The notes under the pieces: generated by a model | Database searches by the model: none | Told to the model about the DNA's origin: nothing | What the model saw: only the letters and a program-made list of their open reading frames with translations | Program-made: the position numbers and the translations under genes | From: Promethearchaeota archaeon | Lineage (GTDB): Archaea > Asgardarchaeota > Lokiarchaeia > Sigyniarchaeales > SOKP01 | Direction of reading: 5' to 3' | NCBI GenBank assembly: GCA_048941265.1 | Contig: JBHLNT010000023.1 | Coordinates: 1 to 38,866, forward strand | Length of the DNA: 38,866 nt | Part shown: piece by piece, positions 29,263-38,866 of the stretch | Layout: each line of letters opens with the position of its first letter | Position numbering within the stretch: the stretch's first letter is position 1

Positions 29263-31755
29263 ATGAAAAAAGTACAGATACAAATATTTGCAACATTTTT
29301 ATGTGTAGCTATTATATTTGGAACTTTAGCTATTAATCAATATTTTTATAATATTGATGGAAATGTTACAGATGATGAAAAGAACTCTATTGACTTGGCA
29401 GAGACTAATCCTAATGTTGGAGTTATTGATTATAAAAATGGTACTACAAAAACAGTTATTGATTATGGTAATGGAACTAAGCTCGTCTTTATAGAAAACA
29501 AAATTATTAAAGAAATAAAAAGTGGGATAGATCCAGAACAAGCTGTTAAAATTTCAAGTTCTTTGGATGAAGCAACAGGGATGATTACGGAAGTTTATAA
29601 AGCAACATTAGAACAAGAAATTCTTATGGGTTACAGTTGGCAATTAATCGAATGGGATACCACACTCGCAGATTTAGTTGTTGTAAAAGCTGGAATAGAA
29701 ATTGATATTGGATTCGGAGTAAGACTTCCCGTGGAGGTCAAACTTGAATATCCCTCACAAATGGCCGTTGAGCATGATTACATATGTTATGCAACTCTAA
29801 TTCCGATTAATAAACCTTCTTATGAGGAATTTAAATGTTCAATTGAGGCAAATGGTTGGATTTGGGTAGGGATTCCAGGTGTTATAGGAGATGAAGCGAC
29901 TTTTGGTCCAGATTATGATTTCTCAAAAAGTTTTACTACACCGTTAGGTTCCGGAGCGGCATTTCCTATTGATCCAATTGAAGTAGAATTATACAGTATT
30001 TATTTGATAGGATTAGATCTAGTTTTTAATCCACAGCTTGGTTCTGATAAAATTACGGCTAGAGCGAGTGCTACTGGTGATGGTAGAGTAATTGGTCAAG
30101 ATGTCATTACATGGACAGCTCCAAATCAAAAAAAATCGTTTACAGTCCGTGCGAGAGACTATGAAGCTACTGACTATGCTACCATCATACTTTCAGACTT
30201 TAGGTATTATTTCTCTAAATTTGATATAGATATTGGTTTGAAGGTCGATTTTTGTGATGCAATAAATTTGTTTATCCCTGATCCACCTACTATTTATTTT
30301 TTTACAGTAGATATGGGCTGGCTTACAGGAGGAGCATACCTTGGTGTTCATCCAGGAACAGATGGAACTGTAGATAAAAGTGTATTCGTTGAAGATTATG
30401 GTGTAGAGTTATATATATCACCATCGATAAGTGATGCAGTACCTGGTTTCCCAACGACCTTTAATATCAAAGTCACTAACAAGGGAAATGTACAAGACAC
30501 ATTTAAACTCACTTTAGCGGGATTGCCTAGCGATTGGGAGTACGTTTTTTCAAAAAGCACAGTCACTTTAGGGGTTGGTAACTCAGAGTGGGTGCAACTC
30601 CATATTACACCTAAAAGACATTATTCGACGTCACCCGGTAATTATCCATTTAGTGTCACTGGTACTAGCCAGAAAGCTCAGCAACAGAATTTGATTAGAG
30701 AAGATACAGTAAGTGCAACTGTACGTGTTTTGCCTTTTTATGAGTTTTCTAGTGCAATTTCGGATGATATAACAGTTATTCCAGGAGAGCTAAATAAGTT
30801 TACCATTCAAATCCAGAATCTGGGAAATGTAGAGGATACCTACTCACTTAACTATATTTTTAAGGACTTTGCATCCCAATATGAAGCTTATCCTACTGTT
30901 TTACAAGAAATATGGTTTAGTAACCTCGTCGATTCAGTGACACTAGGACCTGGTGAAAAATCCACTATAGAAATCAGCGTTATAATTCCGCAAAACTGGG
31001 CTGGATTTGAAGATACCATCTATGAAATGGAGACAATTATATCCACAGTCCATGCATCATCACAAGCATTGGACTTTTCCATTGAAGCAATCAGTTTGCT
31101 GTATAATAAGCTATGCTACCTTGATTGGCAATTAGAAGAATTAAAAGATTATATTACTAGTAAAGTATGGATTTTCGGTTGGATTCTCAATTATAAATTA
31201 TCTCAAGTACAAAATATGCTACAAGAAGCTCACAATCTTGTTGAAAGTGGAGAAGTTACATGTAGCCTTTATCGAGACCTCATTGCACAAATACATTTGA
31301 AGATTACAGAATTCTGGGCTGAAATTCTTAATTGGTTTCATTTACTAAGCGACGAGGAATTGGAATATATATCAGATTCTATTAATGATATTAGCAACCA
31401 TATTGTACTTTTTATGGGTGCTTCGGTTGGAACTGAGCAGGCTTTTAACATAGCTTTAATTGAAGTTGACTTACTTAATCTCCTCGATTTTCTCGAAGAG
31501 GAAATGAGTTTCTGTAAACAATGGTTAATAAGTAGCTATGTTGGATCTGCTGCCGTAAAGCTCGAAGTAGCAATATTTATGCTTTCATTAGGGTTTGATG
31601 TTGAATGTATATTGACATGCGCTCAATCCGAATTAGAAAAAGCGGAATGTGTTATTAATCTGTTATTAGATAAGGGAAAAATTTCTCAAGAATTAGCTGA
31701 TACATTACTCTTTGAAATCGACCAAGCACAAGAGGACATAGAAGTTGTGAAATAA
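29263..31755 (+). CDS. Secreted/surface protein with two COG1470/NEW3-like Ig-fold repeats and a helical C-terminus
   Basis: Signal peptide; VTNKGNVQDTFKL and IQNLGNVEDTYSL repeats; VTLGPGE; PGNYPFSVTG. Confidence 0.65.
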   Translation: MKKVQIQIFATFLCVAIIFGTLAINQYFYNIDGNVTDDEKNSIDLAETNPNVGVIDYKNGTTKTVIDYGNGTKLVFIENKIIKEIKSGIDPEQAVKISSSLDEATGMITEVYKATLEQEILMGYSWQLIEWDTTLADLVVVKAGIEIDIGFGVRLPVEVKLEYPSQMAVEHDYICYATLIPINKPSYEEFKCSIEANGWIWVGIPGVIGDEATFGPDYDFSKSFTTPLGSGAAFPIDPIEVELYSIYLIGLDLVFNPQLGSDKITARASATGDGRVIGQDVITWTAPNQKKSFTVRARDYEATDYATIILSDFRYYFSKFDIDIGLKVDFCDAINLFIPDPPTIYFFTVDMGWLTGGAYLGVHPGTDGTVDKSVFVEDYGVELYISPSISDAVPGFPTTFNIKVTNKGNVQDTFKLTLAGLPSDWEYVFSKSTVTLGVGNSEWVQLHITPKRHYSTSPGNYPFSVTGTSQKAQQQNLIREDTVSATVRVLPFYEFSSAISDDITVIPGELNKFTIQIQNLGNVEDTYSLNYIFKDFASQYEAYPTVLQEIWFSNLVDSVTLGPGEKSTIEISVIIPQNWAGFEDTIYEMETIISTVHASSQALDFSIEAISLLYNKLCYLDWQLEELKDYITSKVWIFGWILNYKLSQVQNMLQEAHNLVESGEVTCSLYRDLIAQIHLKITEFWAEILNWFHLLSDEELEYISDSINDISNHIVLFMGASVGTEQAFNIALIEVDLLNLLDFLEEEMSFCKQWLISSYVGSAAVKLEVAIFMLSLGFDVECILTCAQSELEKAECVINLLLDKGKISQELADTLLFEIDQAQEDIEVVK

Positions 31756-32200: not shown

Positions 32201-32965
32201 TCAACCTAACTCTTGTTTTTCATTTTTTTCCCAAAAGTAAGAGATAATATATTTTCCAGCGAAATATGCGAGTAAAATGCCTGCGATTTCGTCTATAATA
32301 TAATGTTGTTTTATGAATAGGGTAGATAATATTACACCAGTGGCAATGATGAATGTCGTTATTGCTATAGTTTTTGTAATCACATGGGGTTTGATTTTAT
32401 AATATCGATACCAAGTATAAAAGATAATTGTAGATATTGAAGCGTGGAGACTGGGAAAACAATTAAAAGAGGTATCAATATGATAAATGTTATAGACCTG
32501 ATCAGCCCAAAAATTACCTCTTATTTTGTGAGCTAAAAGTTCTTGTCTATACCAATATGTTGATACAGGGAAAAAAATATAAATAATGATTGAAATCGCA
32601 TTTATAATCACTAATGCCCAGCTAAGCGCTACACCTTTTTCTGATTCCATAAATGCAAAAAAGATCATCGAGATTATAACCATAGGGTAGAATAAAAACA
32701 AATAAAAAATCACCATTTCTGGAACAAATGGAATTAAATCGTCAAGGCCAAAAAATATAAAATCTAAACGATAACCTGTCCCTTCTGGATATAGACTACC
32801 TGTCCAGTTATAGAGAATTGTATTTAAAATTAGATAAAACAAAACCACCATTAAAAATACATTTACTATAATATATGTGATTCTTTTACTCCAAAGAGTA
32901 GATTTTCCCTTAAAAAATATTTTTTCAATTCCTTTTTGTATATTGTCATGAATTTTTATAAGCAT
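32201..32965 (-). CDS. PAP2-superfamily membrane protein (Aur1/IPC-synthase-like subgroup)
   Basis: NCFPSLH and QHYIIDEIAG motifs; ~6 TM. Confidence 0.8.
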   Translation of the reverse strand: MLIKIHDNIQKGIEKIFFKGKSTLWSKRITYIIVNVFLMVVLFYLILNTILYNWTGSLYPEGTGYRLDFIFFGLDDLIPFVPEMVIFYLFLFYPMVIISMIFFAFMESEKGVALSWALVIINAISIIIYIFFPVSTYWYRQELLAHKIRGNFWADQVYNIYHIDTSFNCFPSLHASISTIIFYTWYRYYKIKPHVITKTIAITTFIIATGVILSTLFIKQHYIIDEIAGILLAYFAGKYIISYFWEKNEKQELG

Positions 32966-33270
32966 TCACCAAAAAAAAAATAATAAAATTCAAATCAAAA
33001 TTGAATAATTTTATATTTAAACTTAATTCAAATACTCTAAATATACAAAAAAAATATTTGAAATACAGCAATCTATATTTAGAGCTATTAAGTTATTTTT
33101 AAGCTAATTTTTATCAACATAAAAAGTTAAAATATCGACTAGTCGGAAAATTCAAAAGAGAAAGAGATTTTTTATATTAATAACGATTGAAAGCATCGTA
33201 GGAAAACAAAAAGTTTTTAATAGATGAGATTACTTTTTTATAATTAACAACTACATTGGGAATAAAAAAA

Positions 33271-33384
33271 ATGAAAACGCTTCGAAAAAATATTACTTTT
33301 GATATAAGAATAAGTTTGAGGCGGCTTTCTTCCTTAAGTGTGTTGTTAAGTTTATTAAATCTATTTTTATTATTATTACTTTAA
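33271..33384 (+). CDS. Putative Leu-rich leader peptide (37 aa)
   Basis: MKTLRKNITFDIRISLRRLSSLSVLLSLLNLFLLLLL*; 14 Leu, 11 of them in the last 16 codons; directly upstream of leuA. Confidence 0.65.
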   Translation: MKTLRKNITFDIRISLRRLSSLSVLLSLLNLFLLLLL

Positions 33385-33441
33385 GCCTCCTCTCGTTTTA
33401 TAAGATTTGAGGTTATCGCTTTCTTATAAACGTGGAGAGGC
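33318..33441 (+). promoter_or_regulatory. Attenuator-like alternative RNA structures
   Basis: Long imperfect stem 33385-33405 / 33422-33441; competing 9-of-10 pairing of GAGGCGGCTT (33318-33327) with AAGCCTCCTC (33383-33392). Confidence 0.6.
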
Positions 33442-33477
33442 GTTGCAATATAAATAAATCAAATTAGGTAAGTTAAA

Positions 33478-35097
33478 ATGACGGAAAAAGAGGACATATA
33501 TGTCTCACAGATGATGGATAAAATACGAGGGTCATTGATCCTTCCAGAAAGAGCGTATTTTTTTGATACGACTCTTCGTGATGGAGAACAAACACCTGGA
33601 ATTAGTTTTAATCATGAAGAAAAACTATCTATAGCTCAGGCGTTAAGCGAATTAGGTATTGATATTATTGAAGCCGGATTTCCAGTTATATCTGAGGGAG
33701 ATTTTAAAGCTTGCAAAGATATTGCGAAAATGGGTTTAGATTCAGAAGTTATGGGTTTGGCACGTATAAAAAGAATAGACATCGACAAGGTTATAGAAGC
33801 GGATATGGATAGCATACACGTCTTTATTGCGACTTCAGATCTTCACATGAAAGAAAAATTACAAATGTCTCGAGAAGAAGTAATAAATGACATAGCAGAA
33901 TTAACTGCATATGCAAAAGAGCACTATTCTACTGTATTGTTTTCTGCTGAAGATGCTACTCGGTCAGATTTAGATTTTTTAATCAAAGCAAATCGAACAG
34001 CCATCGAAAATGGAGCTACTCGGATAAATATACCAGATACTGTAGGAACTATAACACCTAATGCTTTTGGATATATCATCCGAAAAAACTATGAAGCTTT
34101 ACCAAAAAATATAAGAATTGCTGTCCACTGCCATAATGATTTTGGATTGGCAGTTGCTAATACAATCGCTGGATTTGAGAATGGAGCTTCAGAGGCACAA
34201 ACTACTATTATGGGATTAGGTGAGCGAGCAGGAAATGCATCTTTCGAAGAAACTGCCATGTCACTTTATGCTTTATATCGGATTCCAATGAATATAAATA
34301 CCAGAAAGATTTTTCCGACGGCAAAGTTAATCGAAAGCTATTGTGGTGGTAAAATAAAAATCGGGCGCCTCCAACCACTAATCGGCCAAAACGCATTTGC
34401 TCATGAATCAGGTATTCACGCTCATGGAATGATAAAACATGCCCGTGTTTATGAACCAATCACTCCAGAGTTAATAGGGATTCGACGCTCTGATGATGTT
34501 GAAGAAATTGTTAAGAAATCCATTAAATTAGGAAAACATACGGGGGGTCATGCTCTTAAAGCGAAATTGGAAGATTTAGGAATTAATCCTACAGATGAGC
34601 AATTTAAAAATATATTTAACCATGTTAAAAGTTTTGGAGATAAAGGGCACGAGGTAATGGAAGAAGATTTTCTAGCTATTGTAAAAGACGTAATGGGCGA
34701 ACTTCCCGAAGAAGAGCAATATGTTAAAATCGAAGAATTGACCGTATTAACCGGATCCGTTACACCTACAAGCACAGTTCGATTAAAAATTAGAAATAAC
34801 GGAGATTATTTAGAAAGAACCGCTTCTTCCATCGGTGTAGGGCCTGTTGATGCGTCTTGTAGAGCCATAGTAAAATGTTTCGAACCTATGAGTAAAGTGA
34901 AGCTTTTGGAATACAATATTGATGCAGTGACCGGAGGTACTGAAGCCTTAGGCCATGTTTCCATTGAATTAATGGACTTAGAAACTAACCAGATTGTGAA
35001 AGCATCCGCTGCCCATGAAGATATAGTAATGAGTTCTGTACTTGCATTAATAAAAGGACTTAATAAGATAATGAAAGAAAAGAATTCAAAAAATTAG
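33478..35097 (+). CDS. leuA: 2-isopropylmalate synthase (LeuA/CimA family) with C-terminal allosteric domain
   Basis: DTTLRDGEQTPG, HVFIATSDLH, PDTVG, HCHNDFG, GERAGN, HESGIH, GVGPVDA; CimA cannot be fully excluded. Confidence 0.85.
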   Translation: MTEKEDIYVSQMMDKIRGSLILPERAYFFDTTLRDGEQTPGISFNHEEKLSIAQALSELGIDIIEAGFPVISEGDFKACKDIAKMGLDSEVMGLARIKRIDIDKVIEADMDSIHVFIATSDLHMKEKLQMSREEVINDIAELTAYAKEHYSTVLFSAEDATRSDLDFLIKANRTAIENGATRINIPDTVGTITPNAFGYIIRKNYEALPKNIRIAVHCHNDFGLAVANTIAGFENGASEAQTTIMGLGERAGNASFEETAMSLYALYRIPMNINTRKIFPTAKLIESYCGGKIKIGRLQPLIGQNAFAHESGIHAHGMIKHARVYEPITPELIGIRRSDDVEEIVKKSIKLGKHTGGHALKAKLEDLGINPTDEQFKNIFNHVKSFGDKGHEVMEEDFLAIVKDVMGELPEEEQYVKIEELTVLTGSVTPTSTVRLKIRNNGDYLERTASSIGVGPVDASCRAIVKCFEPMSKVKLLEYNIDAVTGGTEALGHVSIELMDLETNQIVKASAAHEDIVMSSVLALIKGLNKIMKEKNSKN

Positions 35098-35144: not shown

Positions 35145-36329
35145 TTATTTTAAGAAATCTTCAAGAAGATTATAGACTATTTCTAAAGTATTTAAATCTG
35201 GAAGAAAGGTAATTCTAAAATGATCCTTTCCATAAGTACCAAAACCAGAGCCAAAAACGGTACAAATTCCGGTATTTTTAAGAAGATCTATAACAAATTC
35301 TTTATCGTTTTTCCACTTTGAGAATTCTTTAAAATTTATCTTAGGAAATAAATAAAAAGCCCCATCTGCATTATTGCAGGTTAATCCTTCAATTTGTTTT
35401 AATCTCTTATATGAGTAATCCCTTCTCTCTCTTAATTTTTTAACCATCTCGTCCGTATGAGGTCCAGGGTTCTTAATTGCTTCAATTGCGGCATACTGAG
35501 CTATTGAGTTCGCACATAATCTCGCTCGGGCCATTTTTTCAACGGCTTCTTTTACTTCTACTAATTTATTCCTTAAGTCATGATAATAAATATAGCCCAT
35601 CCGCCAACCCGTTGCCAAATGTGCCTTGCTGAAGCCGTTCATTCCAATTATGGGTACATCATTGCTTAGAGACGCAGGGCAAGTATATTCCTTTTCATAA
35701 GTAATTTGGTCATATATTTCGTCAGATAATACCGGTAAAGCATATTCTCCTGCCAAATCTATGATCTGTTTAATCTTATTTTTATTATATACGATTCCTG
35801 TTGGATTATTAGGTGAACATATCAAAATTGCTTGTGTCTTATCTGATATTTTCTTTCTAATATCATCAATATTTGGCTCCCAAAGATTATCTTCGTCTAA
35901 TTCATATTCTACTGGAACTCCATCAAAAAATTTTGAGTAATTAATGTATACGGGATATGAAGGACCGGGTATAAGAAGCTCGTTTTTATTTTCTAATAGA
36001 CTTGCTAAAATAAAGAATATTCCCTCAGTCACGCCTGACGTGATCATGACATCGTCCGGTTTAAGATCAACATTGTTTTTATTTCTTTCATATCTACATA
36101 TTTCTTCTCTTAACTCCCTTACACCCAAACTATCCACATAAAAATTTTGGCCTGCAAACGTAGCATCGGCTAATGCCTGAGATATATAATCAGGTGTGTT
36201 GAAATCAAAAATTACAGGATCCCCGATATTTAATTGATACACTTGTTTGCCTGTTTTTTTTATTTCATTTGCAACAGCCGCAACATCGCGTATTGCATAG
36301 CTCATTCCCTTGACTCTTTGTGTCACCAT
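35145..36329 (-). CDS. PLP-dependent class I/II aminotransferase (alanine aminotransferase-like)
   Basis: LNIGDP, PNNPTG, DEIYD, FSKAHLATGWRMG, GSGFG. Confidence 0.9.
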   Translation of the reverse strand: MVTQRVKGMSYAIRDVAAVANEIKKTGKQVYQLNIGDPVIFDFNTPDYISQALADATFAGQNFYVDSLGVRELREEICRYERNKNNVDLKPDDVMITSGVTEGIFFILASLLENKNELLIPGPSYPVYINYSKFFDGVPVEYELDEDNLWEPNIDDIRKKISDKTQAILICSPNNPTGIVYNKNKIKQIIDLAGEYALPVLSDEIYDQITYEKEYTCPASLSNDVPIIGMNGFSKAHLATGWRMGYIYYHDLRNKLVEVKEAVEKMARARLCANSIAQYAAIEAIKNPGPHTDEMVKKLRERRDYSYKRLKQIEGLTCNNADGAFYLFPKINFKEFSKWKNDKEFVIDLLKNTGICTVFGSGFGTYGKDHFRITFLPDLNTLEIVYNLLEDFLK

Positions 36330-36484: not shown

Positions 36485-38866
36485 TTGACAATCATTGAAG
36501 GCAAGACCGCATACCCTTATATCACCGAATTTAAGAAAGAGCAGTTCAAATCTTTCGTCCTTATTAAAAGGAGGGACATAGGAAACTTCTATTTGAGTTC
36601 ATATAATGAAGCAATTAACTTGTATCGATATTTTAATGAAAATCTTTTTAAGAATCCAGATTTGAATCTGGAAAATATTTATTGGTTTCTTTTATTAAGA
36701 AAATATTTGGGGGAAGATAGGGAAGAAAAAAAGAATGAAATATATGATTTTATTAAGAAATGTGCTATCAATATTGATTATAAATTAGGATTTAAATTTT
36801 CACCGAATTCTACAAACCAGCCAGATCTTTGGTCTACTTATTTTGCTTTGGCGAGTTTTAAGTTATTGGGCTTATTAAATGAATATCTTTGGTCAGAGGG
36901 AACAGATCAAAATATCCGAGAGATTATGAATTTTATTATGTCTCATAAAATAGGTAATTCATTTGTACATTGTTTAAATAAGAATTGTGAAATTGACAAA
37001 AAAACCTCTTCAGCAAGAACTCTTTATTTCGTATTAGAATCTTTTATATTATTAGGTATTGATATTCGTACAAGTAAAGATAAGTTTCTCACTTATATTG
37101 GCAGTATTAAGAGAGATCCTTCAATAGTATACAAATTATTATGCTTAAAATTTTTAGATTTAGAACATGATGTAAATGAAAAAAATATCCATTATCTCCT
37201 TGAAATTCAGAAAGAAAATGGGGGATTTAGCTTTAAAAAAATTAATGGGAGAATTAACACAACATTTTGGCTAGTTTATGCTCTTGACAATTATTATTGG
37301 CTAATGGATTACAATCCAGTAGGAATATATTCCTTTATAAGTTCTACTATAAAGGAAATTTTAAACATCGGAACAAATCCCTCTCTTATTAAAATGATGG
37401 AATTATCAAAATCGGTTATACTTCTCTCAATAATTTGGAAAAAATTCATAGATGAAATAGAAAGAGTGATATTTAAGCAGTTAGAGCAAAAAGAACATTA
37501 TGTTGATTTATATTTAATTACATCCAAATTTGGATTAATACACGGAATAGATGAAGTATTGTCATACATTAATTTAAATTATACATTTAGCCTTAGAATC
37601 TTGGATAATAAAATAGAATTCAATAACTTTATTCGGAACTTAAGCAATAGTGAAAATTCGATAGTTTCTGAAATTTATAACCAATTGAGGCAAAAAAATA
37701 TCATATCTCTTAGTGAAATTCATAAAAAATATAAGAAATCTCTTAAATTAAAGGAAGATGTTTTTCCCTTAATCAAAGAATTGATGAATAGAAATTTTTT
37801 TAAGGGTAAAATTGTTAAAAAAAGGTTCAGTAAATTTTACTTATATCTTGATTTTTTTATTGAAAAAGTAATAGTCTCTGATACGGAAATTAACTTAAGT
37901 CAAATTTTAAATGAAAAAGAGATGCTTAAAGATATTAAAAATGATATTTACAATATGACTTTAAAGCTTAAAAATGCATCTAGACGAATAAAAGAAGAAA
38001 TTGAATCATATCTAATAATTGATGAGTTAGATTATGCCAAAGAACGATTAAAATTTATTTTAAGAAATGCCTTGATGGACGCAGACTTTCTTAATGAAAA
38101 CATTGAAAATTCTTTTAACTTAGATTTGTATTATATCAATATTCAAAATGTTTTAAAATCTGAAATCTCTACGTGGAATAATTTATATTCAGTTTTAAGT
38201 AAAAGACTAAATGAAATTGACTCATATCTTAAAGAAAAAATTGCTGAAAAAGAAGAACTTCGAAATTTAAATAGAACATTAGACCAATTAGATGAAAAAA
38301 TCTTTAATTTTAGTGAATCAATTAGTAGAAAAATTGATGAATTTAAAAATATTTTAAGGGAATTTAATGAAAATGAATATCAGGATTCAGGATTTACCGA
38401 TTTAATTAAGGAATTTGATAAAATAAGAACAAATACTTTTGAGTTTGATAAGAAGATTTATGAAATATCTCAAAAAATAATTTCAAAAGATGAATTTATC
38501 ACTGAAAAAAGAAAAAAAGTAATAAATAATTGGGTTAGCATTAATGAGGAGCTAAAAGAGATATTTAATTATTATCAACGTGGTTTTAATTTTTTCAAAG
38601 AGAATTTAGATAAATTAAACTCTCTAAAAAGCAATATAAATGAAAAATTGGCGAGAATTAATAAGAAAGCACAAGAAAATGTAAATGAAAATCGATTTCA
38701 AGAAGCATTTGATTTGATTAAAAGAGAATCTGATGATCTTTTGAACACTATAAAGGAAAAAATTGATAATCTCCAAAAAATAATTAAAGGCGAGATAAAG
38801 AATAAACAAAAATTATATCTCCTTTATAGGATGTTGAGTGAAATGTCTGAGAATCTTGAGGAAAAA
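36485..38866 (+). CDS. Large protein, 3' truncated by the window: prenyltransferase-like repeats, winged-helix-like segment, long coiled coil
   Basis: Absent from the ORF track; hand translation from TTG 36485 (GAGGT at 36470) stays open for 794 codons; LGFKFSP..PDLWSTYFAL, QKENGGFS...INTTFW, LIKELMNRNFFKGKI, then an E/K/N/I/L-rich region. Confidence 0.8.
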   Translation, partial: MTIIEGKTAYPYITEFKKEQFKSFVLIKRRDIGNFYLSSYNEAINLYRYFNENLFKNPDLNLENIYWFLLLRKYLGEDREEKKNEIYDFIKKCAINIDYKLGFKFSPNSTNQPDLWSTYFALASFKLLGLLNEYLWSEGTDQNIREIMNFIMSHKIGNSFVHCLNKNCEIDKKTSSARTLYFVLESFILLGIDIRTSKDKFLTYIGSIKRDPSIVYKLLCLKFLDLEHDVNEKNIHYLLEIQKENGGFSFKKINGRINTTFWLVYALDNYYWLMDYNPVGIYSFISSTIKEILNIGTNPSLIKMMELSKSVILLSIIWKKFIDEIERVIFKQLEQKEHYVDLYLITSKFGLIHGIDEVLSYINLNYTFSLRILDNKIEFNNFIRNLSNSENSIVSEIYNQLRQKNIISLSEIHKKYKKSLKLKEDVFPLIKELMNRNFFKGKIVKKRFSKFYLYLDFFIEKVIVSDTEINLSQILNEKEMLKDIKNDIYNMTLKLKNASRRIKEEIESYLIIDELDYAKERLKFILRNALMDADFLNENIENSFNLDLYYINIQNVLKSEISTWNNLYSVLSKRLNEIDSYLKEKIAEKEELRNLNRTLDQLDEKIFNFSESISRKIDEFKNILREFNENEYQDSGFTDLIKEFDKIRTNTFEFDKKIYEISQKIISKDEFITEKRKKVINNWVSINEELKEIFNYYQRGFNFFKENLDKLNSLKSNINEKLARINKKAQENVNENRFQEAFDLIKRESDDLLNTIKEKIDNLQKIIKGEIKNKQKLYLLYRMLSEMSENLEEK

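Follow-up and report, generated by a model that had tools for sequence, protein, structure and literature searches.

Organization of the leuA Locus

The window (the whole 38,866-nt stretch of Promethearchaeota DNA that was analysed) carries on its forward strand a gene for 2-isopropylmalate synthase, leuA, preceded by a short leucine-rich leader ORF (uORF) and by a long hairpin, P3, that begins where the uORF ends. Two further helices, P1 and P2, involve the first part of the uORF and the RNA just upstream of it (Table 1). At this locus leuA is monocistronic, and the next gene, for an aminotransferase (35145-36329), is convergent with it. The genome as a whole (5.0 Mb in 361 contigs, 30.5% G+C) also contains four TBP genes and a full-length actin match (428 bits), and is thus archaeal and Asgard-like in character.

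Table 1. Features of the leuA leader region, with positions in the window
Feature	Position	Strand	Remarks
A-rich/T-rich element AAAGTTTTTAAT	33210-33221	+	Likely BRE/TATA of the leader transcript, by promoter geometry
P1 5' strand	33243-33267	+	5' UTR, including the SD-like GGGA of the uORF (33258-33261)
Leader ORF (uORF)	33271-33384	+	37 codons, 14 Leu in all, LLLLL then TAA
P2 5' strand	33272-33287	+	uORF codons 1-6; contains GCUUC
P2 3' strand	33314-33330	+	Contains GAGGCGGCTT; also the competitor of the P3 5' arm proposed earlier
P1 3' strand	33325-33350	+	uORF codons 19-27, including Leu codons 19, 22, 25 and 26
Leu-rich sensor segment	33334-33381	+	uORF codons 22-37
P3 hairpin	33385-33441	+	57 nt, imperfect; 19-bp outer helix plus 3-bp apical stem
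A-rich unstructured spacer	33442-33477	+	Includes the leuA Shine-Dalgarno AGGT (33466-33469)
leuA, 2-isopropylmalate synthase	33478-35097	+	539 residues; NF002085, 587 bits against a cut-off of 517

The uORF translates as MKTLRKNITFDIRISLRRLSSLSVLLSLLNLFLLLLL followed by a stop codon. Eleven of its last 16 codons are Leu, and its 3' end reads TTA TTA TTA TTA CTT TAA, with the terminal Leu run at 33367-33381. An earlier note, made from the sequence of this region, had drawn attention to these features; the coordinates, the 37 codons, the count of leucines and the run of five against the stop were all verified. The uORF has an SD-like element of its own at -13, which fits the SD positions of the genome, and the AGGT of leuA stands at -12, within the genome-wide SD peak at -13 to -11. 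The hairpin described in the same note also proved to be as given, both in sequence and in fold: it opens at the first base after the uORF stop and closes 36 nt before the leuA ATG, with a folding energy of -20.4 kcal/mol (z -3.51; none of 200 dinucleotide shuffles as good). The whole genome was scanned for short ORFs that start with ATG, repeat one residue at 5 or more of the last 10 codons and are followed by a gene within 20-200 nt; of the 82 obtained, the leuA uORF has by far the strongest hairpin behind it.

Conservation of the Leucine-Rich Frame

Orthologs of LeuA were located at 27 loci in 41 related genomes, 26 of which, the window's own included, have a 5' flank that can be used. At 20 of the 25 relatives' loci (L002-L021), or 21/26 counting the window, leuA follows a Leu-terminal uORF, over a range of LeuA identity to the window that runs from 94% down to 65%. 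These uORFs finish in 3-6 Leu codons, sometimes with 1-2 other residues within or after the run, and their stops lie 82-122 nt from leuA, the one exception being L018, where the distance is 368 nt across an assembly gap. At the other five flanked loci, L022 and the G+C-rich L023-L026 (two other families), no uORF was found. In public genome contigs, a set that shares genomes with the first and in which, as there, relatives are non-independent samples, the uORF is present at 54/54 Promethearchaeota-type loci with LeuA at least 76% identical (L081-L134), and the hairpin after it reaches z <= -2 in 50 of the 54. Outside the Asgard archaea (24 leuA loci, LeuA 42-48% identical), 20 loci have no such uORF and the remaining four have a loose match with a hairpin that is not significant.

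The composition of the leaders points the same way. Leucine makes up 63% of the last 16 codons in 54 distinct leaders, against 9.8% in the long ORFs of the genome, and occupies positions -1, -2, -3 and -4 in 47, 52, 52 and 51 of the 54. All six Leu codons are used (TTA 367, TTG 72, CTT 49, CTA 22, CTC 21 and CTG 3 over the 54 leaders), which argues for selection on leucine rather than for a TTA microsatellite; most are TTA (69%), the commonest Leu codon, with no preference for rare ones. The earlier note had cautioned that TTA runs arise easily in AT-rich DNA and had proposed a comparison of leuA upstream regions among relatives. A chance origin of the frame is countered by its conservation at 20/25 and 54/54 loci, and the comparison finds the Leu-rich uORF kept, its Leu codons varied synonymously, and covariation in the stem that follows it.

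The P3 Hairpin

All 21 orthologous leaders fold a long hairpin just past the uORF stop, at -10.8 to -27.4 kcal/mol, with z <= -2.5 in 20/21. Its geometry is closely kept: among 55 distinct leaders P3 always starts 0-5 nt past the stop, has a median size of 55 nt (about 20 bp), and is invariably rich in pyrimidines on its 5' arm and in purines on its 3' arm, the latter frequently with GGAG or GAGG when read by eye. A median of 37 nt separates the end of P3 from the AUG (34-43 nt in 51/55 leaders). The covariance model of P3 described below found no second copy in the genome.

Run on a plain MAFFT alignment of the 21 hairpin regions, RNAalifold gave no structure, and on the 13 closer regions a partial structure only; a covariance model was therefore built from a structure given by hand, and pairs were counted on the alignment of its 15 sense-strand matches. 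In this alignment, which leans towards its model, 88.6% of cells are paired, compared with 51-66% when the partners are slid, and none of 500 shuffles reaches the observed value; double changes occur in 14/19 pairs of the same 15-sequence, model-fitted alignment.

One alternative is that the conserved object is DNA: a palindrome serving leuA as operator or within an internal promoter, with the uORF as a by-product of AT-rich DNA. The stem does include TTATAA-like words in the window and its near relatives, and its antisense strand also folds (-17.9 kcal/mol). The stems of distant orthologs, however, are wholly different yet still paired, and have no TATA-like words; G-U cells outnumber A-C cells by 36 to 16 (in the alignment fitted to the model), favouring a sense RNA; the SD of leuA at its usual distance requires a transcript starting further upstream; and synonymous changes leave the Leu run intact. 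We find a DNA-level role for the palindrome scarcely credible.

Helices P1 and P2, and the 5' End of the Transcript

Upstream of P3, the strands of P1, a helix that the earlier note had not described, form a duplex of -16.6 kcal/mol (33243-33267 with 33325-33350; z -3.08), and this pairing is kept despite widely differing sequences, with z < -2 in 17/21 orthologs. The domain that it closes, 33243-33352, folds at -27.7 kcal/mol (z -4.50), which none of 200 shuffles matches. P2 lies inside the P1 domain: its duplex has -14.2 kcal/mol and z -3.64 in the window, and across orthologs a mean z of -1.93, with z < -2 in 10/21. When nine segments of the leader were set against one another in an all-against-all pairing test, the clearly conserved pairings were P3 and P1 only (P1 with z < -2 in 16/20), and no other leader segment was complementary to either arm of P3.

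P1 also has a bearing on where the transcript begins. Its conserved pairing implies that 33243-33267 should be present in the RNA, so that an element of the AAAGTTTTTAAT type fits the role of promoter better than the TATA-like TTTATAA at 33237-33243 to which the earlier note pointed. That motif is indeed there; the near-leaderless uORF that it was thought to produce is unsupported, with 33243-33267 forming part of a helix conserved in 17/21 orthologs. A AAAGTTTTTAAT-like element recurs in orthologs at about 52-66 nt before the ATG of the uORF (by eye, in 21 ATG-anchored leaders), and from archaeal promoter geometry we take 33210-33221 to be the probable promoter. The start of the leader transcript is predicted near 33243-33246.

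The earlier note had further proposed mutually exclusive stems, in which the 5' arm of P3 is taken up by GAGGCGGCTT (33318-33327), a segment of the uORF. In a classical attenuation scheme built on this, GAGGC would act as antiterminator and P3 as terminator. The pairing is possible in the window (9/10 bp, RNAduplex -15.6 kcal/mol, z -2.77), and it also reaches z < -2 in L003 and L009; across orthologs, however, it does so in 3/21 only, with a mean z of -0.74, so that a classical 2:3 antiterminator is not a conserved part of the device. The GAGGC antiterminator was rejected on this count, and on the finding that GAGGC has a better-conserved partner upstream, the GCUUC near the start of the uORF with which it forms P2. 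The order of the elements is also awkward for such a scheme: since the Leu codons separate the two segments, the ribosome would stall inside the loop of the proposed stem. P3, besides, has no U-tract. The classical scheme is in our judgement distinctly unlikely for this leader.

Cognate Leaders Elsewhere in the Genome

Leaders of the same kind were sought before other genes, as the earlier note had suggested. Citramalate synthase (cimA; TIGR00977, 674 bits), whose reaction opens the route to isoleucine, is preceded by an Ile-rich uORF, MKIMKIIPICIIIISSIIIGIII, and the bacterial-type leucyl-tRNA synthetase gene leuS (TIGR00396, 951 bits) by a uORF with a Leu run, MISNNNMKNSLSLQILSKVLLLLLL. Only two short ORFs in the genome encode 3 or more Trp within the last 10 codons and are followed by a gene, and the genes in question are trpB2 (NF009057, 640 bits) and trpA (TIGR00262, 266 bits). 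With leuA, this makes five genes in one genome at which the residue that is enriched matches the gene that follows. A relaxed scan of the genome gave no convincing cognate case for His, Arg, Thr or Val; of the leaders suggested earlier, those for isoleucine and tryptophan were found, together with a second one for leucine, and none that convinces for histidine.

Across related loci, a uORF with Trp-rich C terminus precedes trpB2 at 22/30 (14 of the 22 with at least 3 Trp), and an Ile-rich uORF precedes cimA at 15/23. The leuS leader is found at 12/27 loci by a loose criterion. Four of the 27 (L184, L185, L189, L194) have a run of at least 4 terminal Leu at about 190-195 nt, and it is in these four that the leuS leader is convincing; the remaining loose matches look like chance. 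The Trp and Ile leaders tend to contain T-tracts: runs of at least 6 T occur in 9/14 Trp leaders, compared with 29% of shuffles, and in 8/14 sit 26-38 nt past the stop, while T5+ occurs in 13/15 Ile leaders, compared with 50% of shuffles. The leuA leaders are unlike them in this respect (see below), and the output may therefore differ from leader to leader.

These cognate pairs also bear on whether the product of the uORF might instead be a small hydrophobic membrane peptide that acts in its own right, the hairpin serving as intercistronic stabilizer and the link to leucine being incidental. In its C-terminal half the peptide is hydrophobic over a length that would suffice for a membrane helix, and some positions are kept (MK.LQ and S-L-G-L-L-L are examples). 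The conserved motifs of its N-terminal and middle parts fall, though, on the RNA strands of P1 and P2; residues outside the Leu positions vary freely among orthologs; no Pfam family matched the peptide; and an incidental link would leave aside the Ile-, Trp- and Leu-rich uORFs before matching genes in the same genome. A peptide with a role of its own seems to us very improbable.

Tests of the Output

If the leader regulates leuA, its state has to be passed on to the gene, and two classical outputs were examined. For intrinsic termination, no U-tract directly follows P3 in the window. Across the leaders, P3 is followed by a short RUU (T in 56% and 76% at +2 and +3) and then by A-rich sequence. 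Runs of at least 5 T between the stop and the AUG occur in 14/54 leuA leaders, compared with 19% of shuffles, and an oligo-T terminator in the leuA leader was rejected, T runs not being enriched over shuffles. The earlier view that the hairpin is no classic intrinsic terminator is supported on both grounds, the missing U-tract and the lack of T-run enrichment.

The gene ends of the genome offer a comparison. T5+ is present at 50% of them, against 32% of shuffles, and their mean MFE is -8.3 kcal/mol, against -7.9 kcal/mol in shuffles, so that hairpins as the usual terminators of the organism were also rejected, for want of enrichment at gene ends. Gene ends with T-tracts and no excess of hairpins make P3 unlike the usual terminator of this organism. 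Archaeal polymerases are not known to require hairpins for termination.

The second classical output is masking of the leuA ribosome-binding site (RBS). MFE folds of several orthologs hinted that the Leu run might sequester it; this candidate was rejected, the duplex having a mean z of +0.32 against composition shuffles, with 1/20 below -1. Set against all leader segments, the leuA RBS segment gave mean z values of -0.12 to +0.95, with no conserved complementarity. Predicted accessibility of the RBS rises from 0.48 to 0.58 when the footprint of a stalled ribosome is masked, and stays at 0.48 with a control mask; in this model the shift is weak, though above zero. Neither classical output, intrinsic termination or RBS masking, is supported for the leuA leader.

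A translational output of another kind could still be attached to the same leucine sensor: stalling, or the melting of P3, might raise initiation at leuA, with the purine-rich 3' arm as a standby site, or P3 might set the geometry for re-initiation. Such a role would suit the tightly kept distance between P3 and the AUG (34-43 nt in 51/55), which roughly matches how far a small-subunit footprint extends upstream, the purine-rich 3' arm found in 55/55 leaders, often with GGAG or GAGG, and the small gain in predicted accessibility under a stalled ribosome that the control mask does not give. It fits less well with an RBS that is not paired beyond chance and whose accessibility is near one half before any stalling. 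Coupling by re-initiation, moreover, would reduce leuA expression during leucine starvation, which is the wrong direction, and a P1 helix that hides the uORF SD is better suited to a single co-transcriptional reading than to continuous sensing. Taken together, these points make a translational output unlikely, in our estimation.

A Proposed Model for Leucine Sensing by the leuA Leader

It seems probable to us, with some reserve, that the leuA mRNA carries a leucine-sensing leader, in which folded P3 corresponds to low and blocked P3 to high expression. From the anatomy described above we infer that the uORF is translated, that ribosomes stall in it, in which direction control runs and how folded P3 acts. 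Transcription would start some 25-30 nt upstream of the leader ORF, which has its own Shine-Dalgarno sequence. Once transcribed, uORF codons 19-27 would pair with the 5' UTR to form P1 and hide that sequence, so that the leader would be read mainly by an early ribosome coupled to transcription. This ribosome would have to decode 11 Leu codons among the last 16, five of them adjoining the stop. With plentiful charged tRNA-Leu it would reach the stop and depart, and P3 would fold; with scarce tRNA-Leu it would stall in the terminal Leu run. A ribosome footprint extends about 12-15 nt downstream of the A site, and at the end of the run it would cover the G+C-rich foot of the P3 5' arm, so that P3 could not close. 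That the folded hairpin should be the low-expression state and the blocked hairpin the high-expression state is assigned on physiological grounds: stalling for lack of leucine has to raise leuA expression.

The sensor half of this device is well supported by its anatomy. As to what folded P3 does, our first conjecture is a loss in the yield or the integrity of leuA mRNA, an effect favoured by elimination, intrinsic termination and RBS masking having found no support. Possibilities for its action include:

Pausing or termination that depends on the hairpin and is brought about by the archaeal polymerase or by a factor. FttA/aCPSF1 would be one archaeal candidate.

Cleavage of the helix of about 20 bp by a structure-specific nuclease. 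The genome has one gene with an RNase III domain (contig C84, 245 residues, PF00636 at 71-73 bits), in whose product Pfam found no dsRBD. Such a gene occurs in 35/41 genomes of the order and in 0/4 archaeal control genomes; it also occurs in 3/4 genomes of a family without the leuA leader, and for this reason it is a lead for the cleavage route rather than evidence for it.

A more far-reaching reading, which we put forward tentatively and would not press, is that the Asgard archaea possess a regulon of gauges read by the ribosome (for Leu, Ile and Trp in this genome), and that the output device at leuA is one undescribed in bacteria: a helix of about 20 bp, fixed in size and polarity and set at the stop codon, which would work without a U-tract and without holding the RBS and would be read by the polymerase, a termination factor or a nuclease.

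Comparison with Known Leaders

The obvious counterpart is leuL, the leader of the enterobacterial leu operon (Rfam RF00512, Leu_leader), together with the other classical attenuators trpL, hisL, ilvL and pheL. The likenesses are considerable: the 5' leader of the first gene for biosynthesis includes a small ORF in which cognate codons form a run, structured RNA follows it directly, an early structure limits translation of the leader, and the same logic serves several amino acids in one genome. The differences concern the host, which here is an archaeon with a putative BRE/TATA-type promoter; the hairpin, which here has no U-tract and no conserved antiterminator; the place of the regulatory codons, which here are at the end of the ORF, abutting the hairpin, and there in segment 1; and their number, at least 11 Leu codons here and four in E. 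coli leuL. No Rfam family, RF00512 included, reached its gathering score anywhere in the window, and at E values up to 10 the interval 33150-33550 gave just two chance matches to miRNA precursors. We do not file the device as a leuL-type attenuator, since it has neither a hairpin-plus-U terminator nor a conserved antiterminator.

In geometry it may be closer to factor-dependent control of the tnaC type. In E. coli tnaC, the ribosome is arrested on the last codons of the leader ORF and there covers the RNA beside the stop codon. By analogy, the decisive ribosome would in both cases be the one at the last codons, the occluded element here beginning 0-5 nt from the stop in 55/55 leaders, and neither needs an intrinsic terminator. 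The two differ in what is sensed and what is covered: tnaC responds to free Trp via the nascent peptide and occludes a single-stranded Rho site, whereas the element occluded here would be the arm of a helix. Rho is not known from archaea. Translational attenuation of the ermC/cat type has in common with the model for leuA that stalling in a leader ORF keeps a helix further downstream from forming; there the helix holds the RBS of the regulated gene, whereas the leuA RBS lies 25-36 nt past P3 and pairs with no leader segment beyond chance.

Ribosome-mediated attenuation is a textbook bacterial mechanism that relies on coupled transcription and translation, and the Asgard archaea are the closest known relatives of eukaryotes. 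No description of leader-peptide attenuation in archaea was found in a full-text search of chiefly open-access papers; the excerpts of PMC6991167, PMC1262725, PMC7261190, PMC5314783, PMC13158618 and PMC4833913 do not address archaeal leaders. The presence in an archaeon of a leucine leader peptide upstream of leuA, with structured RNA directly behind it, which the earlier note had proposed, is borne out by sequence, fold and conservation, and attenuation-like control, the other part of that proposal, is supported for the sensor half.

If the model is correct, gene control in Asgard archaea would use the translating ribosome as a sensor of metabolites, coupling between transcription and translation would be physiologically exploited in these organisms, and the signal would be relayed without the bacterial hairpin-plus-U terminator. 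The leader RNA of about 235 nt (33243-33477) is a short and concrete object for work on coupling, pausing, termination factors and RNA processing in archaea.

Leaders at other amino acid genes

Upstream ORFs rich in the amino acid made or used by the gene downstream are also found at four other loci in the window's own genome, G000 (see table). The gene 117 nt downstream of the Ile-rich uORF encodes a citramalate synthase (674 bits on TIGR00977), and similar uORFs are present at 15 of the 23 citramalate synthase loci of relatives. Two hairpins follow the uORF in these leaders: a small one, built from the last Ile codons, and a long one whose loop is U-rich.

In both Trp-rich uORFs (L041, L042), the final Trp codons, together with the stop, form part of a small G+C-rich hairpin. 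A T-tract recurs in the trpB2 leaders 26-38 nt past the uORF stop; inspection by eye also picks out a recurring helix there, in which the uORF start region would pair with post-uORF sequence (GGTTTAG:CTAAACC). The Leu-run uORF precedes, by 195 nt, a leucyl-tRNA synthetase gene of bacterial type (951 bits on leuS_bact vs. only 283 on leuS_arch); among relatives, a leader of this kind is convincing at 4 of 27 loci.

Features located in the window, in the rest of G000 (contigs C41-C189) and at a euryarchaeal leuA locus
Feature	Position	Strand	Locus	Remarks
Large protein, function unclear	window 29263-31755	+		choice-of-anchor T and weak Ig-like matches
PAP2-superfamily phosphatase, 254 residues	window 32201-32965	-		PF14378, 44.6 bits
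Large protein, function unclear	window 36485-38866	+		prenyltransferase alpha-alpha toroid domain
Ile-rich uORF MKIMKIIPICIIIISSIIIGIII	C113:5062-5133	-	L039	upstream of citramalate synthase
Leu-run uORF MISNNNMKNSLSLQILSKVLLLLLL	C41:3320-3397	-	L040	upstream of leucyl-tRNA synthetase
Trp-rich uORF MVPVNNLAWRWQWTWRWR	C189:14563-14619	+	L041	upstream of trpB2
Trp-rich uORF ending KITWFWIWRWHA	C147	-	L042	upstream of trpA
RNase III-domain protein, 245 residues	C84:33812-34138	-	L214:1153-1890	
uORF MQPRFRNPFLLSLRLLLVG			L151	75 nt upstream of leuA; Euryarchaeota MAG, 65% G+C

Atypical leuA loci

At the leuA loci L018 (contig C95 of the related genome G039) and L128, a run of N marking an assembly gap and a duplicated stretch separate the Leu leader from its gene; the leader-to-leuA distance of 368 nt there is probably an artefact. 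The euryarchaeal uORF may be a Leu leader unrelated to that of the Promethearchaeota, in another phylum: its hairpin has a folding energy of -27 kcal/mol, yet its z score relative to shuffled sequences is only -0.9.

RNase III-domain protein and gene neighborhood

A lead for possible cleavage of the hairpin that follows the leuA uORF is the RNase III-domain protein, in which no dsRBD was found with Pfam. Of 41 genomes from the window's order, 35 encode a member of its family, closed genomes among them, whereas all four archaeal control genomes lack one.

Within the window, a 305-nt intergenic region is common to the predicted Leu leader promoter and the divergent phosphatase gene. The choice-of-anchor T match of the large protein encoded at 29263-31755 scores 61.1 bits, slightly under the family cut-off of 70 bits; the other large ORF runs off the window end. 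Elsewhere, G000 has four separate TBP genes (contigs C56, C76, C301, and C253), each with two TBP repeats, and six actin-family matches, with a top score of 428 bits.
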